Part shown: positions 30,531 through 54,789 of the stretch, one piece after another | How positions within the stretch are numbered: the first letter of the stretch is position 1 | Layout: every line of letters starts with the position of its first letter | Assembly: GCA_028534125.1 (NCBI GenBank) | Contig: CM052851.1 | Span: 1,178,001-1,242,000, forward strand | Origin: Lama glama | Taxonomy: Eukaryota | DNA: 64,000 bases | Direction: 5' to 3' | The notes under the pieces: generated by a model | What the model was told of the DNA's origin: nothing | What the model saw: only the letters and a program-made list of their open reading frames with translations | Databases searched by the model: none | Program-made: the position numbers and the translations under genes

Positions 30531-31515
30531 GCTTCCAGGAAACGGCTCCCGGCGGGCGGGGTCCGCCAGGGAGCAGCCCCTTCACAGCAAGCTGGCCTGC
30601 AGGTGGGCTTCTAGGAAGGGGCCCTGCTGGTGCCCTTGCCCCGGCAAAGGGCCAGCCATATCACCAGGTGCAGGCTGGGGAGAGGTGCAGAGAAAGGAGG
30701 GGCTGGGGGAGTAGACGGGCCGAGGGGCCTGGGCCGTGGCCTGGTGTGGATCCCACAGCCTTGAGGGAGGCCCAAGCTGGCCACGCTCCTTCTAGGGCCT
30801 TCTGTTACCCCTCTGGGGGTCATGCAATCTCCACTGGGGCCCCTGGCTCCAGACCTTGTCGGTGCAGCACACGAGGGAACCCTGGACACAGGGAGAGGCG
30901 AAGGAAAGTGCTCCCAGCCCAGGCCAGGGTTGGGTTCCAGCTCCCTGTTGGTGCCGCCCCGCTGGCCTCTGGCCTGGGCCATGGCCCACGGCACCCTATG
31001 TCCTCCTGGAGCCCGGGGTGCAGCGAGGGGCCGCCTCGCAGGCCCATCCTGTTTATTGAGACTTGCCGCTGCCCCAAATGTCACATAGGGCCTGTTTAAG
31101 GGACGTCGTTTCTTTCATGCTGTCGAAACTTTTTCTGTTCCCACTCAGGGGTCATCCAGAGCCGGCCTCCACTCTGCCCCCACTGTCCACGTCCTGCCTG
31201 AAGGTGGGCCTGGGATCATTAAACTGGGCCGAGACCAAACCCACACACACACAAAGGCATGCACGGGCAGGCCCAGAGTCCATGCTCCAGGGGACACTGC
31301 CTCCCCGGGGCCGGGCCACACAAAAGCCAGCAGGCCCCGCAGAGCGCCGCTAAGCAGGACGGGGCCCGCTTCCATGCCTCCAGCATGACCACACGGCTAG
31401 AGACCCGCGCTCACAGCCCCAGACACACGCTCGTGGACACACAGTGCAAGAGAGGAGGCTGGTCAGGGCTGCGAAGCCCGGGAGCACGCAGCTGGCAGCA
31501 CTGAACTCCTCGAGG

Positions 31516-34064: not shown

Positions 34065-35544
34065 GATGAGTCCAGGCCTTCTGGGGAAGTCCTGGTGGGG
34101 AGGGGCACGTGGCGAGAGGGCCGCGTGACGGAATGCTTCAGGGCTGGCTCGGTGTTTGGAGCCTCCAGACTAGGCGAGGGGAGGGCGGGGCCTCACACAC
34201 TCAGGCCCCAACCCGGTCACCCCCAGACAGAGATGAAGGACAGGTGGGCGCTGGGCGGGGGCACGCAGGCCAAGGAGGCCGGGCCACTCAGCAGTTTGCT
34301 CAGACACTCGCTCAGAGACTCAAGGCTGGTTCCAGAACCCCAAACCAGTGCAAACGACTTAGTGCAAATTAATTCAGGAGGGACGGGGAAGCGGAGTCCT
34401 GGATGCTCTGGGTCCTCTGAGCAAAGGATAGAGGAGAGAAGAGTAGAAAAAAGTCAGAGAAAAGGATGAAGAGGAGGAAGGGAGGGTGCTGATGGTCTCC
34501 TGGACGTGGCGGGGTGGCCGCAAAGATGGAATTGCCGGGCGGGGGGTGGGTGCGGCCGCGGGTGCCGCTGGTTTGTCCGGTGTTGTGGGTCGTCTGTTCC
34601 TTTGGCTTGACCTGCAGGCAGAGACTGACATGAGGGTGGGGCAGGGCAGGCAGGCCAGGGGACCTCGGGCGGGTGCCTGCGCCCACCTTCCAGAGCTGGT
34701 TCCTGAGTCAAGTGGTGTAGTGGTTCCAGAATGCAGCATATTCTTGGATCAGAGCTAGAAGGACTTGAAGAAGTCCGGGTTCCAAGGCCCAGGCATGAGC
34801 TGGGTAGCACCATTTCTGCGGGTCGGGAGAGAGTGAACGCTCGTCTTTTGGCCCCACCCCTCCCTCCCCCGTGGGAGGCGGGGGGCCCCTCACCTTGTCG
34901 TCTTGAGGGTTCTGGGGTCTAGAGAGCAGCATAGTGTATTGGCTCCTTCAGGAAAGCAAAGGAACAGAGATGCTGGTGCCCAGCTCCCCGCGGGGCCAGC
35001 CAAGGATGTTCTGCGGGAAAGAAGACGGCGTGAGGGCCGGATGCGGCTCAGTCAGCCTGGGGGCCGTGGCCTGTACACACACTTACCAGGGAGGCTGGAC
35101 GGCGTCCTGTCTGTCCTCGCCGTCACGCCGGACCATATCATGTCCCTCTGAGCATGTCCTACCTACCGCCCGGCCTTCGGTGGCTGGCAGACACGTCCAC
35201 CCCTGCCGGAGACGTGACTGCGAAAACAGGAAGACGCTGGTTGAGTGGGCAGAGGCGGCGGTGGGGGTCGCGGGGGAGGCGGGCTGGACACTCACCCTCG
35301 TCTCCGGTCCGAGCGCAGAGGCACCGATCTCTGCTCCATCATCACCCGCAGAGGCCCGCTTGGCCACGGGCTCGGAGGCCAGTGCCCCCTGGCTCCCCAC
35401 CAGGCTCCGGCTCCTCACCCCCGCCTGCGCCCCAACCTCCCCCCCCCCGAGAACTCCCACTCACTCCGCCCCGCCCGCCTCGCCTAATCTGGTCTCGCCA
35501 GTGCCCTTGACTCCCCTGGGTGCTGTCCTGTCTACCATGCCAGT

Positions 35545-35613
35545 CCCAGAGGTGAGCGGTGAGGGCGTACAGTGTCCCCAAGTGCCGGGGGCCCTCCCGC
35601 ACCAGCCCCTGGG
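35545..35613 (-). ncRNA. MIR675: miR-675 precursor hairpin in H19 exon 1
   Basis: Minus strand reads CCCAGGGGCTGGTGCGGGAGGGCCCCCGGCACTTGGGGACACTGTACGCCCTCACCGCTCACCTCTGGG. The 5p seed GGUGCGG and the 3p GCCCUCACCGCUCA match miR-675. Confidence 0.92.
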
Positions 35614-36666
35614 CCGCAGTGCCTCGTGGGAACGGCGCGTCCGCAGGCCAGGCCCCCAGCAGCCTCCTTGCTGCGGGAATCTCTCAGGGGCCCACCCTGC
35701 GGCCACCGCTCCCTCCAGGTGACAACCCGCTGCGGTTCCCCGCGCACTGCTCCTTCTGTCCCTTTCTCCAGCCCTCGAGGCTCCGGCTCAGGCCGTGGGA
35801 GGCCTGGACGGAGCCGCTCCTGTACCTTCTCCTAAATGAATTGCAGTGGGTGAGGTGGCGGCTGGGGACCCTGCGGTCCTGAGTCCCCTGCCTCGTCCTG
35901 TCCGACCCGGGCCTGGAATGCCCCCGCAAGTGCTGGATCTCTGCGGCCCCCTGACACCTCCCTCGCTGGCAGCCCTTCCTCTTCTCCCCGCTACTCTCTC
36001 GAAATGCTCTTCCTGCCTGGGACGGCCTGCGGCCCCCAGCCTGCCTGGTCTCAGCTCCCCCTGAGACGGTGTCCCCTGTGCTGCCTGCCCTGCCATCATC
36101 CCCGCTCTGCCGGGCAGTCTCCCGCTTCACCTCGCCGGCCTTGCTCCCAGAGCCTCCTGGTGCAGAGGCCAGTGGAGCAAGGCCCAGGGAGGGGAAGGGG
36201 ACTCACCTGGCCCGGCAGACCGCTGTCTCCACCTGCCCACGGCTGCCAGCTACACCGCCACGGCCCCTGGCCCCGGGGCGCACCACTCTCCAACTGCCCC
36301 TGTCCACCAGCCGCCACGACCTGAAACCAGAATTGACCGGGATGAATGTCTGGCTCCCCCCTCTTCCTCCTGCACCCCCGGCTTGGGCCCCTCACTCTCC
36401 AGCCGATGCTATCCTGCCTCCTGGGCACCTGGGAGCCCGCACCTCGTCCCCACCAGGCTCCCAGGTGCCCGCCAGCCCTGCCCAAGCCAGCCCCTCAGCC
36501 CCTCTCCGCTCCTGCCAGACTCCAGATTCCAAGGTGATCCTTGGCCCACGCACACGTCCCTGCACCCCGCTTCCCCACGCTTCCCTGGTTACCCCTCGGC
36601 TCCCCCGCTTCCCCAGTTTCCCCCGAGCCCCCCCATCCCTCCCACCACCCCCCTCCCACACCCTGC

Positions 36667-36750
36667 TGCCTGGGCCCTAGCCCGGGCTTTTTCTAACTGG
36701 AGTAGCCCCGCCCAGAGTTCCCGCCCCTGCTCCGCCAGCCAATCAGAGCG
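36667..36750 (-). promoter_or_regulatory. H19 core promoter
   Basis: TATA-like TTAGAAAAA (36688-36696), GC boxes (36706-36713, 36720-36727), E2F-like GGCGGGAA and CCAAT (36739-36743). Matches the human CAGTTAGAAAAAGCCCGGGCTAG promoter sequence. Confidence 0.88.
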
Positions 36751-37722
36751 GGGACCGTGCTTGGGGCCACCACAAAGCCCACCTCCGCCGGCTCGGTCTA
36801 GCGCACGTTCCTCGCCTGTCCTGGAATTCTCCAAAGAGGGCCTTCCCCGCACCCCTCCTTTGGCATCCTGTACACAGGGCTTGGCATTGTCCCCAAGCCT
36901 CCCCTCCCCCCTTCCCCGGGTTGAAACGGTCATGTCCCCTCAGGGCGGACCGTGCCGTGCAGGCGGCTCCCCGCCCAGCCCCCACCGGGCGCACACTCTG
37001 CCCTTGGATGGAAGTCCTAGCTGGGGCCCCAGGGGCTCAAGTGAGACTTGGGGACGCCTTCTGCCACCACCACGGCTGAGACCGCATTTTACCCCAAGGT
37101 CCCAGGGTCCACGGAGAGGTCCCGCGGGGTGCGCTGGGGGGTCGGGGCTCAGGCTGGGCCCGAGAAAGTGCCCGAGGTCTGCCTGTGTCAGGCGGGCGCC
37201 AGCGCCCAGCTCCAGGACCGTCTAGTTGATGGTGCCTATCGCAAGCACAGCAGGTTTTATGTGGTGGGCTCCCCGTTGTGGCCGGGGCGCCTCGTCCCCT
37301 CGCCACCGCGGTCCGTCGTCTGGACGCGGCACCCCTGCCGTGTCCTGCAGCTCACGGGTGCGCTCTGGTGACAAGCCGTGCAGCCTCACAGCCCTGCCGT
37401 GGCCGCCCTATGCACCGCCGCCCGGAACACGCTGCCGTTCAGTCAGAACAAAGACCTGTGAGCTTCGAGCCCGCCCAGCTACCCCTGGATACCCCGTCCT
37501 TGGGGCGGTCACCTTGGCCTTGAGGGGGTGGGGGGAACTGGGACCCTACAGTCCAAAGGGCTGGGCCACCAAATCTAGGGTGCTGCTGCCATTGGGTGAG
37601 GTCACATCTAAACAAGGGACCTCGAGCTTTACAGGGTCCCCCGCACCTCGGAGAGAGCCTTGGGGAGACCCTGCTCCTGGGAAGCGCGTGAAGTGCTGCG
37701 TGTCCCCTGCCAAACCTGAGAG

Positions 37723-37886
37723 CCAGCTTTTGCCATGGGTGAACCCCCAAGTTTACAGTGGAAAACCCAGCCTTTGCTATGGGTGAACCCCACATTTACA
37801 TTCGGAAAACCCCAGGCTTTGCTATGAGTGGACCCCCAAACTTATTGTGGGAAAACCCAGCCTTTGTCATGGGAGGAGCCCCAAGC
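37723..37886. repeat. 44-45 bp tandem repeat, about 3.7 copies, between the H19 promoter and the ICR
   Basis: Units start at 37723, 37767, 37812 and 37857. Consensus is approximately CCAGCCTTTGCTATGGGTGAACCCCCAANTTTACANTGGAAAAC. Confidence 0.9.
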
Positions 37887-37965: not shown

Positions 37966-37980
37966 CTGCCGCCTCGCGGC
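37966..37980 (-). promoter_or_regulatory. ICR CTCF site (proximal)
   Basis: GCCGCGAGGCGGCAG on the minus strand fits the CCGCNNGGNGGCAG H19 consensus. Confidence 0.92.
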
Positions 37981-38389
37981 CGCCTCTGGCCCCACACCCA
38001 CGGCTGCTTGGTGCCACTCGGTGCGAACGGCCTGTGGTACTGGCCCAAGGCGAGGAGAAGAGACCCCCACAATCCTCTTGCGCTCGGCAGGGCAGCACCC
38101 AATACCCTGCTGCTGGAGGCCCGTGGGAAGGGTCTCCCTCTGAAGCCGAATGCACGTAGCCCGAGGTGTGGGGAGGACTCATTGCTCCCAAGTGCCCCCT
38201 CTCCTCTCCGTAACTTCAACAGTGCAGCCGAGGGTGACTCAGATGGGGTGACCTGGGATGGCTCGGATGAGCGCCCCATCTTGCTGATGGTCCTTGTGAA
38301 CCACGCGGTATCCGGCCGGGTTGGACCCGGCACGCCGTGCAAGTGGATCCCGGTCACGGCCACCCAGGTCAGAGATGTCCGAGCCTGCA

Positions 38390-38404
38390 CTGCCGCCTGG
38401 CGGC
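38390..38404 (-). promoter_or_regulatory. ICR CTCF site (middle)
   Basis: GCCGCCAGGCGGCAG in the same repeat context (GATGTCCGAGCCTGC on +). Confidence 0.9.
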
Positions 38405-38921
38405 CACTTCTGTCTCCTCACCACAATTGCTCGGCACTGTTTGGGGGCGCGACCAGCTCACAGGGTGGCCCCTCGTGCAGGGGGCGGCTCCCAGGGCCCA
38501 GTACTGCCGGTGGCCTGTGCGGCAGGTGTCCCTCCGGAGCTTGGGCTGTGACTCTCGGGTCCCATCGTGTCCTCATCACTCCAGGACACGGGGCCCCACT
38601 ATTCCCGTATCCCCTCTCACCCCATGGCCTTGGACACACGGGGCCATGACCCTAGCGGCAGTGGGACCCACCCCCAGCAGCACATGGGCTCCAGGGCAGA
38701 CCCACGGTGCTCTATCTGGGAAACGCACCTCCACGGGCTCGTGAGGTCCCGGAGCACAGCGTGAGGAAGTGACTGGCCACAGAGCACGCTTGCCCGTCGA
38801 GATCCCCACCTTTAACGGTCCCTAGGCACTAGGGTGCCCCTGCACCCTACATTGGTGGCGGCACTTGCGCGAACCGCCGCCCTGCCGCGGCAGAACCCGG
38901 AGGCAGCGGCACGCCCAGATC

Positions 38922-38961
38922 TTTAGCATCTCAAACACCAGAACTGCATGGAGATGTTAAT
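38922..38961. promoter_or_regulatory. Dyad OCT4-type octamer element of the ICR
   Basis: TTTAGCAT (38922-38929) and ATGTTAAT (38954-38961) are inverted. The minus strand CATTAACATC...TTTGAGATGCTAAA resembles the human ICR A-repeat OCT element. Confidence 0.8.
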
Positions 38962-39293
38962 GACTGGCTGTTAGGGTCTGAGGTTCACACTGAAGGCAGA
39001 TTTGGGCTCAGTAAAAAGCCCGGAGTTCTGGAGGACCGCCTTTGGTGTGCCGCCGTCCTCGTACCTGGCAGGCGTGACGTGGGACCCACACCGCGGGACC
39101 TCAGACGGGGACCCATGGCTGAAGCTGCGATGTGGCCCGACCTGGGGACTGGGGTGGCTCGGACGAGTGCCTCATCTCTCTGATGACCCTCGTGGACCAC
39201 TGCGGTATCTGGCGTGAGCGGACCCGGGATGCCGCTAGCGTGGACCCCGGACGCTGTGTGGGCGAACCCCGGTCGATGATGTGTGAGCCAGCA

Positions 39294-39308
39294 CTGCCGC
39301 CTCGCGGC
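39294..39308 (-). promoter_or_regulatory. ICR CTCF site (distal)
   Basis: GCCGCGAGGCGGCAG, with flanks homologous to the other two repeats. Confidence 0.92.
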
Positions 39309-52100: not shown

Positions 52101-54789
52101 AGGCGCTGGGGTGAGGACTGGGCTGGGGCCTCGGGGCCCAGTCCAAAAAAGACCTTTAAAGGTTGAGACGGGAAATAACAAGACAGCCTTTCCCAGTCTC
52201 CCTCCCTCTCTGTGTCTCTGTGCCCCTCTCCCTCCCCTCGCATCATAAAACAAGGAATTTATTTTTCACTGCGCCTGGGGTTGCAGACGGCTGTGGCTGT
52301 CCTGCTGTGTCGGGCTGGGTTTATTTGGGGTGGGGGCGGGCAGGGGGTGCTTTCTGTTTTCTTTTGCTTTTGCAAGGAAAGGGCGGGCAGGGGCTGGTGG
52401 ACCCGCAGGGCGCCCCTCCCTCCCCCACTCCGAGGGGGGCTTTCCTTCCCCCTTCACTTCCCTTTTCCCTTTTGGGGGCTGAGGTTAAACAGAGGGCGCC
52501 CAGGGCCCGTGACCTTTACCCTCTGACATCTTTGAGCTCAGGAGGGCTTTGATGTCTTAACTGCCTGCCTCACACCAGTCACTCTCTCCCCCCCACCAGG
52601 AGCAGGACCCTCTGCAGTTGCCCTTTCTGGGCCCCCCAGGTCCCAGGAAATTGGCCTCACAAATAAAGCCAGCGAGGGACTACCTCGTCCAGGTGGCCTG
52701 GAGCTCGGCCACCTCCCCTCCTTCCTCGCTGTCCCCAGAGCCCCCGCCTACCGTCCCTCCTGCCCACACATGGCCTCACGTGCCCCCCTGTTATCCCACC
52801 TGTCCAGCCTTCCTCTGCCCATGGGCTGCCACCTCCTGGGACCTTCTCAAGGAGGCACACAGCCCCAGTGGCCTCTGGTCCCCAGCCCCAGAGCCAGCTT
52901 GGTGGGCACCCTGTTCTGCCCCGTTTCCCTCCAGTGGCAGGAACCCACAGCGGTACTCAGAGGTCAAGCAGGCCGGGGCCCAAGTCGCTGATGTGACCAG
53001 GTGGAACACTCAGTGGGAGAGAGGCTGAGGCCCAAGAGGGGACACCCCGGCCTTCTCACCTGTGGCTCCAGGGAGCAGAGCTGGCCACCAGGCTGGGCTA
53101 AGGCCTGCCTCTGCATCCTGCGTGCCTTCCTGGGCTGGCCGTGCGGGATGCCAGGTGGGCACTGGGCACGACATCGGGCTGCCCTCTGCCCTCCGCTGCC
53201 CCTCTCCAAAGCCAGAGCTCCCCCTGGCCCCAGTTACCCCTCAGCCTGGCCACCACGAGGCCCCTGAGGTCCAGAGGTCCCTCCTCCACTTCCCCAGGGA
53301 ATGCTTGGAGCCCTCAAGGATGCTGTGGGGTAGCCTTTCTGGGTTCCCCCATCACTGCCCACAGCAAGGGCCACCAAGCCCCTCGGGAGCCCGGCCCTGC
53401 TCCCCAGCACCAGCACAACTGCCTGATCTGGGCTCATTTTCCAAGGGTTTCCTCTGCACCCCGCCGAACGGGCCTTGTGTGCTGGGCTGGCACCTCGGCT
53501 GGCCTCCCTCCATGCCTGTCACCAAGCGGTGGGCTCCAGGGGTCTAGGGAGAGTGTGAGGGGTGGAGGCCCTCTGGCCCCTAGAAATGACCTGCATCTGT
53601 GGTCTTGAGACCAGGGTGCAGGTGGGACCCCTCGTTTCCTTGGGGAGGGCAGGGAACCTGGCTGCAAGTGGGTTTCAGCCCAGACAGAGAGAGAAAAAAG
53701 GAGATAGAAAGGGTAAGCTGATGGGGTGGGGAGAGGGCAGAAGCCCCCGGGGGAAGGGGGCCACTGCCGGGAGTGGAGGCCAGAAAGGGCCCGACAGCAT
53801 CCTGCAGAGTAAGACCCAAGGCAGAGAGCGTGGCACTGACAGGGACACACGCGGCCTCTTCCGATGGAGCCACGTGCCCACATCTGTCCCCAGACCAGCC
53901 CCCTGAACATGCAGCCAGGACCCCCCCCCCGGCCGGCCTCCCCACCTCAGCCCTGCCGGGGGCCTTGGCATATCCGTGTGCGGACCAGAGGTGGGTGCCC
54001 ACGGGGCCAGCTGCCCACATTGCCTGGCGTGGGTGCCCCCTTGCTGCGCCGACCTGAAGCCCTTCACCTCCGTCCTCAGACATGGAGAGAGGGCCGCCCA
54101 GCCCGCCCCAAGCTCGGAGCCCATGGAACACACCAGCAGGGACAGTTCCCTGGGACTGGGGTTCAAGGCTGAAGGCCCGTCTCCCACCGCCTCGGGTGTC
54201 CGCCTTGGCCTGAGACTCGGGCCCCTGGCCTGCCCAACCTGACCCACGCCCGGAAGCAGGGCCGCGTCCCCTGCGTCCCCTGCCTCCACGCGGACGGTGG
54301 CCTCGGGTGGGCTCTGGATCGTGCGTCTTGTCACAAATCCTGTGACCACATTGGTGAATGGAACGAGCTGAGTGGGGCTGGGACTGGGGCCAGCAGGGCC
54401 CCCGGAAGTGAGGGGTGAAGCCCGGACGTGGCCCCAGTCCTCTCAGGCTCTACCCACCTGTCCCCACATGCCACCGCCCCAGGCCCTCCCCTGCCCTTCT
54501 CTTGTGCCCTCCGCGGCCTCACCTCTGCCCCGGTGTCTCCTGGCCCTCTTTGGCCCCTTCTGGCCAGGGTACCTCTGGGGGTGTCTTCCAGGCCGCCCTG
54601 CATGCCCTCCACAACCTAGCATGTACGAGGCACTGGGGTGGGGGCTGGGTGGAAGCCTCCTGGCGGCGCCAGGTGGCCGCAGGGCCTGGTGCATGGGCAG
54701 AGGCTGGGGGCAGGGCCCATTGGGCCCGAGGACGCCAGCGTGGCCCCCTCGCCCTCACCCCCCGCAGTCCAGCCTCTGCCAGGTTTCTG

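Follow-up and report, generated by a model that had tools for sequence, protein, structure and literature searches.

The hairpin at the miR-675 locus of the llama (Lama glama) is, with a probability that we put at roughly 60%, a decayed and poorly diced relic that likely lacks a working miR-675-3p. It lies in the first exon of H19, within the 64,000-nucleotide stretch of contig CM052851.1 that was analysed (the window). By descent it represents mir-675, yet it fails both the family score and the seed tests. The original prediction had left open whether this microRNA was retargeted or decaying. Poor dicing and decay are supported by the predicted fold, by the lost match at retained IGF1R sites and by the contrast with miR-483, whereas retargeting is unsupported, as no compensatory 7-mer occurs behind IGF1R, IGF2 or three SMAD genes.

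The identity of the locus is given by its sequence and its setting (Table 1). The Rfam mir-675 model (RF00897) aligns over model positions 1-73 with 52 bits (E 7e-8), which falls below the gathering score of 86 bits. A profile search of the llama genome, in which 62 candidates were scored, found no second mir-675 copy at E<=1, and functional rescue by such a copy was rejected, as the H19 hairpin is the sole match. The Rfam models H19_1, H19_2 and H19_3 all score above their own cut-offs in the window (the models match the plus strand), and the exons and introns follow the five-exon layout of H19. IGF2 and then INS lie on the same contig, upstream of H19; the hairpin sits in H19 exon 1, on the same strand and downstream of IGF2, as expected of an orthologue. 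Three CTCF-like motifs 1.3-2.7 kb upstream of H19 probably represent the imprinting control region. The window holds five such motifs against 1.9 expected, and 6 of 100 shuffles reach five, a count that is by itself suggestive at most. The other two motifs are found downstream of H19 (31297-31310) and far upstream (54280-54293). A 45-bp tandem repeat (37723-37884, 3.6 copies, 79% matches) adjoins the first motif of the cluster, and G-quadruplex motifs are dense at the H19 5' end (36470-36917, minus strand); a 5' quadruplex has been described in H19. The insulin exon (exon 2) is 100% identical to Vicugna pacos insulin over 97% of the query, with all others at or below 90% among the 120 matches listed, which marks the genome as that of a South American camelid; in llama insulin, B2 is Ala and A8-A10 read Thr-Ser-Val (L002:1507-1698, minus strand, and L003).

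Table 1. Features of the miR-675 locus and its H19 setting in the window.
Feature	Position in window	Strand	Basis
miR-675 precursor homologue, H19 exon 1	35545..35613	-	Rfam RF00897, below gathering score; only match in genome
3p arm homologue; seed 35571-35565	35553..35572	-	sequence and RF00897 alignment
5p arm homologue, one base less mid-arm, 3' end diverged	35582..35604	-	RF00897 alignment; ncOrtho rows
53-nt core equal to Mir-675 rows of Camelus dromedarius and C. ferus	35553..35605	-	by-eye comparison with ncOrtho Table S2, rows listed
U>C, 3p position 6	35567	-	unpaired in both folds; U in 18/18 non-camel rows listed
New apical helix, 35590-35586 with 35576-35580, 5-nt loop (predicted)	35576..35590	-	pair probabilities 0.83-1.00
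Predicted 9-nt bulge: 3p bases 1-6 and homologous 3p Dicer site	35567..35575	-	unpaired with probability 0.94-1.00, contexts of 69 to 201 nt
Retained central helix between arms, 10 pairs, one bulged base	35556..35600	-	predicted fold
H19 exon 1 (approximate 5' end)	35296..36646	-	holds Rfam H19_1, H19_2, H19_3; donor at 35295
Four short GT-AG introns and H19 exons 2-4	34612..35295	-	introns 35295-35218, 35086-35011, 34893-34816, 34686-34612, by eye
Three CTCF-like motifs 5' of H19	37966..39307 (37966, 38390, 39294)	-	probable imprinting control region

In its position in H19 exon 1, its single genomic match, its recognisable arms, its lower and central stem and the order of IGF2/miR-483 and INS upstream, the llama locus resembles miR-675 of human, mouse, dog and rhinoceros (RF00897; MirGeneDB Mir-675, node Theria). 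It differs from them in 3p position 6, in a 5p arm with one base less, in an upper stem reduced from six to three pairs, in a 9-nt bulge and a different apical helix, both predicted, and in its sub-cut-off score. The 3p arm begins at C35572 and equals the RF00897 consensus except at its base 6, where C replaces U, a seed change that had been read correctly from the sequence. As this base is unpaired in both folds discussed below, the substitution alters targeting and not structure. The alignment also bears out the earlier description of the 5p arm, whose bases 2-8 equal the human-type consensus while its 3' end has diverged. Besides the base absent from this arm, two are missing atop the 5' stem and one in the lower 3' stem; counted by eye, seven substitutions and three gaps separate the hairpin from the consensus in 73 columns. 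The structural damage stems from 35588, 35586 and 35577 together with the two-base deletion: read in the family register, the upper stem of 6 bp is cut to three pairs and the 2x2 loop becomes a 3x3 loop, the human-type state being taken from the structure line of Rfam and from pairs counted by eye. Regions of H19 outside the microRNA diverge alike (by eye, about six substitutions and three gaps in 71 for H19_1, and eight and one in 69 for H19_2), a rough comparison given that consensus sequences are not ancestors. All four firm core substitutions run from A/T to G/C, although A/T now stands at just 15 of the 53 core sites; the trend in H19_1 is the opposite. Our guess is that GC-biased gene conversion could have been the driver, which would fit this stretch of 65% GC, located 1.2 Mb inside the end of its 63-Mb contig.

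The predicted fold departs from the family register. Pairing between CCCC and the loop GGGG gives -42.4 kcal/mol against -37.0 kcal/mol for the family register, which is 5.4 kcal/mol worse, and the respective pair probabilities are 0.99 for the CCCC/GGGG helix and 0.0003 for the family-register stem. Under Turner-1999 parameters the values are 0.95 and 0.016. The possible CCCC/GGGG pairing pointed out in the original prediction is therefore the predicted dominant helix; the weak upper stem of about 3 bp above a 3x3 mismatch, which it also described, holds for the family register but not for the predicted fold of the RNA. Derived camelid bases (35588, 35586 and 35577) take part in three of the five new apical pairs. 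Below them, the lower and central stem is predicted to be kept, with 18 pairs. Canonical microRNAs have at least about 16 pairs between the arms and no large bulge. In the predicted dominant fold, 13 inter-arm pairs precede the 9-nt bulge; 16 are attained in the family register, though at its very low probability. In this minor register the 5p product would measure 22 nt and the overhang on the 3p start 2 nt, and protein-assisted dicing would be geometrically possible. The hairpin is more stable than expected by chance (z -2.5; 2/200 shuffles), and 24 of the 2332 overlapping 69-mers of H19, in three places, fold as well or better. Its lower stem (8 bp) forms with probability 0.9-1.0 in short contexts and 0.24 in a 201-nt context, and falls also in a 361-nt context, in which the hairpin is no longer the dominant fold. 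No CNNC basal motif is present at the usual distance from the hairpin. A G-quadruplex switch through the four-tract motif 35609-35576 was rejected: it does not beat the hairpin in quadruplex-enabled folding, and such motifs occur at 1.9 per kb on this strand.

Comparison with other mammals made use of ncOrtho Table S2 (PMC10359484), in rows up to Delphinapterus; those for Vicugna, Sus, Ovis and Equus fall outside this scope. Mir-675 is represented by 20 of the rows listed, two from camels and 18 from other mammals. The dromedary and wild-camel rows equal the llama core in 53 of 53 bases (by eye), are flagged as seed-not-conserved, and have the lowest score of the 20 listed (42.1; others 50-83.6), barely passing an inclusion cut-off of 50% of the top score. 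U at 3p position 6 is universal among the 18 non-camel rows listed. These include five non-camelid laurasiatherians (cheetah, panda, dingo, dog and rhinoceros), so the possibility raised earlier that the variant is widespread in this group finds no example (0/5) among the rows listed. The camelid 5p-arm deletion is likewise confined to the camels (0/18 non-camel rows listed), and the upper stem retains six of six pairs in 15 and five of six in three of these 18 rows (by eye), compared with three pairs in the llama. The whole 3p seed is kept (flag 1) in 17 of the 20 rows listed. The giant panda (Ailuropoda) row shows an independent 3p seed change, at position 4, which also breaks one upper-stem pair; five of its six upper pairs are kept, against three pairs in the llama. 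At 5p position 4, 10 of the 20 rows listed have C, several of them flagged conserved, which indicates that the table scores the 3p seed; with this position variable, the kept 5p seed is weak evidence.

The 53/53 identity with camels in the listed rows implies that the lesions are older than the camel-llama split, about 16-17 million years ago. On these sequences the change is old and common to Camelidae; it already stands in a supplementary table, apparently undiscussed, and the main text of PMC10359484, in the sections available, mentions neither mir-675 nor camels and offers no analysis of structure, targets or expression for it. Identity over 53 bases would arise by chance with a probability of 0.34, 0.17, 0.07 or 0.04 at an assumed background divergence of 2, 3.3, 5 or 6%, respectively. 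Some constraint on the core, whose four CpGs are unchanged between camels and llama, is possible.

Llama IGF1R was located through its furin-like exon and C-terminus, and the 7.2 kb past the stop codon were scanned. The ancestral 7-mer match GCATACA is present at +1184 and +1790. A very conserved region of the IGF1R UTR has been described with a miR-675 site about 1 kb in (Mainieri and Haig, PMC5887972, as far as available); by its position rather than by alignment, the +1184 match appears to be this site. At the retained sites, the camelid 3p arm has a C-A mismatch. Matches to the new seed, be it the 7-mer GCGTACA or the 6-mer, are absent from these 7.2 kb, so that the compensatory site proposed earlier is lacking behind IGF1R, and no new 7-mer was found behind IGF2 or the three SMAD genes either. 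The 5p arm has a single 7-mer match behind IGF1R, at +2880. The stretch behind IGF2 holds no 7-mer of either kind; the old 6-mer occurs in it five times and the new one once. An AC-rich element there (contig positions 1306320-1306170, minus strand, L023) consists of about four copies of a 28-bp tandem unit; it carries the new 6-mer in one unit, the old in three and no 7-mer, which is chance level. This AC-rich IGF2 element is discussed in PMC7564603, as far as available. New-seed 6-mers were found in this repeat and behind the SMAD genes on contig C2 (+1132) and contig C13 (+7714), a frequency close to the background of 0.06 per kb. SMAD1/5 are targets of miR-675; neither 7-mer occurs in the stretches behind the three SMAD genes (0/3), which does not discriminate. 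On both strands of 189 kb of llama genome, the new 6-mer occurs 22 times and the old one 58 times; the new match, which holds a CpG, is 2.6 times rarer. Metagenome matches to the 3p arm with positions 5-6 left free (30) were discarded as chance, with similarity in the 5p arm or flank in 0/30.

A relic could have arisen as follows. The substitutions at 35588 and 35577 would create the CCCC/GGGG helix, which would displace the ancestral upper stem. In the predicted fold, the homologous Dicer cuts would then fall in single strands, with 5p nucleotide 22 lying in the 5-nt loop and the start of the 3p arm in the 9-nt bulge, the homologous Drosha cut being likewise a projected position. Dicing would be inefficient or imprecise, and any 3p product still made would face the IGF1R sites with a C-A mismatch. 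The microRNA may have come under relaxed selection before the camel-llama split, possibly already in the cetartiodactyl ancestor, with the H19 lncRNA intact. With a changed seed and a predicted new fold, this growth-limiting microRNA has likely lost the action that it has in mice and people, and would work, if at all, unlike miR-675-3p.

The probable decay at miR-675 stands against the state of miR-483, which lies 95 kb away and passes its family cut-off (87.5 vs 60 bits). Its 58-nt core is identical (by eye) in the llama and in the listed rows of three camels and two baleen whales. In the camelid miR-483 (L023:2355-2428, minus strand) the 3p arm is intact and the 5p arm departs from the Rfam consensus as in the whale rows. 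The distance from miR-483 to miR-675 is about 94.8 kb in the llama (contig positions 1213605-1308422) and 99.2 and 99.4 kb in two camel assemblies; the llama interval is about 4.5 kb shorter. Among the rows listed, a Mir-675 row accompanies the Mir-483 row in none of nine whale and bovid genomes and in 12 of 14 non-cetartiodactyl eutherians. This count leaves out the three camels, species with neither row and six with Mir-675 but no Mir-483, and its Fisher p of 7e-5, which ignores relatedness, was given no weight; bovids and whales make up two or three lineages rather than nine. The absences are threshold calls of ncOrtho, the table also misses Mir-483 in the six species with a Mir-675 row, and the listed bovine Mir-483, a confirmed microRNA, is flagged 'seed not conserved'. 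The Bactrian camel assembly has a listed Mir-483 row and no Mir-675 row. Similar sub-threshold relics may be present in bovids and whales, a loss of miR-675 across much of Cetartiodactyla is possible on the listed rows, and the llama relic is perhaps part of such a wider loss in even-toed ungulates. Description of this microRNA as deeply conserved in therians was overstated, given its absence in some eutherians (PMC10133327, PMC10435380) and the lack of a call for it in all nine whales and bovids listed (0/9). Losses of MIR-675 have been reported in the straight-tusked and forest elephant (PMC10435380); these are non-detections in extinct or draft genomes, whereas the relic in the llama can still be read, lesion by lesion. 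Species-prefixed names (bta-, ssc-, chi-, oar- and cfa-miR-675) were absent from the full-text literature searched and eca-miR-675 was present in two papers, a weak negative in view of the confirmed Mir-675 of the dog. An explanation of the loss by placenta type was dropped, as the listed rhinoceros keeps the gene and the horse has an annotated one.

Among the alternatives, it is unlikely, albeit worth weighing, that only the 3p product is gone and that the remodelled hairpin is kept for a 5p-only product or as a structural or protein-binding element of H19. In the former variant, AGO2 would possibly cut without Dicer, using the approximately 18 predicted pairs and the 5-nt loop above the homologous Drosha cut. 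Such retention would agree with the consensus-like 5p bases 2-8, with the place of all three derived bases in pairs of the new helix, with the hairpin being one of the three most stable sites of H19 and with the 5p match in the IGF1R 3'UTR. However, 5p position 4 varies among the rows listed, where the 3p seed is taken as the family seed; G/C-ward changes easily form new helices in a 72% GC stretch; and the identical camelid sequences allow no compensatory change to be scored. Precursors of the miR-451 type are roughly 40 nt long, and the llama precursor, at about 54 nt with a 9-nt bulge, is unlike them.

We consider it rather improbable that the hairpin is still diced and that its 3p arm acts with the new seed UGUACGC on a new, smaller target set. 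The unchanged core in the listed camel rows, the otherwise consensus 3p arm and the workable duplex geometry that the minor register would offer are in line with this idea, and seed substitutions are known in conserved mammalian microRNAs (bioRxiv 10.64898/2025.12.23.696236, as far as available), with another 3p seed change in the listed giant panda row. Against it, the dominant predicted fold bulges the seed out, the CpG-containing new match is scarce, and the genes searched offer no new 7-mer and 6-mers at the background rate. A rebuilt miR-675, in which coordinated G/C changes switched the apical fold and cut the link between 3p and IGF1R while a small RNA, either a retargeted 3p or a Dicer-free 5p, still came from a hairpin unchanged since camels and llama parted, seems to us a long shot. 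If it were true, an imprinted microRNA would be breaking free of the evolutionary tie that binds it to IGF1R, in the sole even-toed lineage with the gene still readable. An assembly error, as had been considered at the outset, or a private variant might be suspected in so fragmented an assembly (1,072,352 contigs), but the same 53 bases in the listed rows of two independent camel RefSeq assemblies refute it to near certainty.

Among the papers listed by full-text searches, none treats miR-675 in camelids or a loss of this microRNA in cetartiodactyls. No mir-675 entry occurs in the supplements of PMC10133327 and PMC10847693, and the main text of preprint 10.64898/2025.12.23.696236, in the portion available, mentions no mir-675, camel or alpaca, although this seed may be treated in its supplements. 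A study of alpaca skin (PMC3508611) was uninformative, the supplements seen giving neither a full list nor miR-483 as a control. Of 24 sequencing runs listed in a run index, 20 share sequence with positions 34800-36700; they come from 9 studies, and 9 of them are marked as a possible source. Five coded organisms contain 0.87-1.00 of the sequence words and six RNA rows 0.35-0.44, figures that were given no weight, and none of the 24 runs is a small-RNA library. The finding is of moderate value: a table already gives the camel sequence, losses are known elsewhere in the family, and the evidence consists of sequence and prediction.

If the relic reading of the llama hairpin holds, it would bear on the biology of imprinting. 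Reviews ascribe a placental role to miR-675 (PMC6346411, PMC3528689, in the parts available). According to kinship theory (Mainieri and Haig, PMC5887972, as far as available), mutations that free IGF1R from a maternally expressed microRNA should be selected against; camelids, in which the IGF1R site is kept and the match lost, would be a natural counter-example to this prediction. If whales and ruminants also lost the hairpin, much of an order would have retained H19 while lacking its best-known product. The lncRNA function of H19 would then be separable from its microRNA function, and caution would be due in carrying mouse H19/miR-675 results to livestock.
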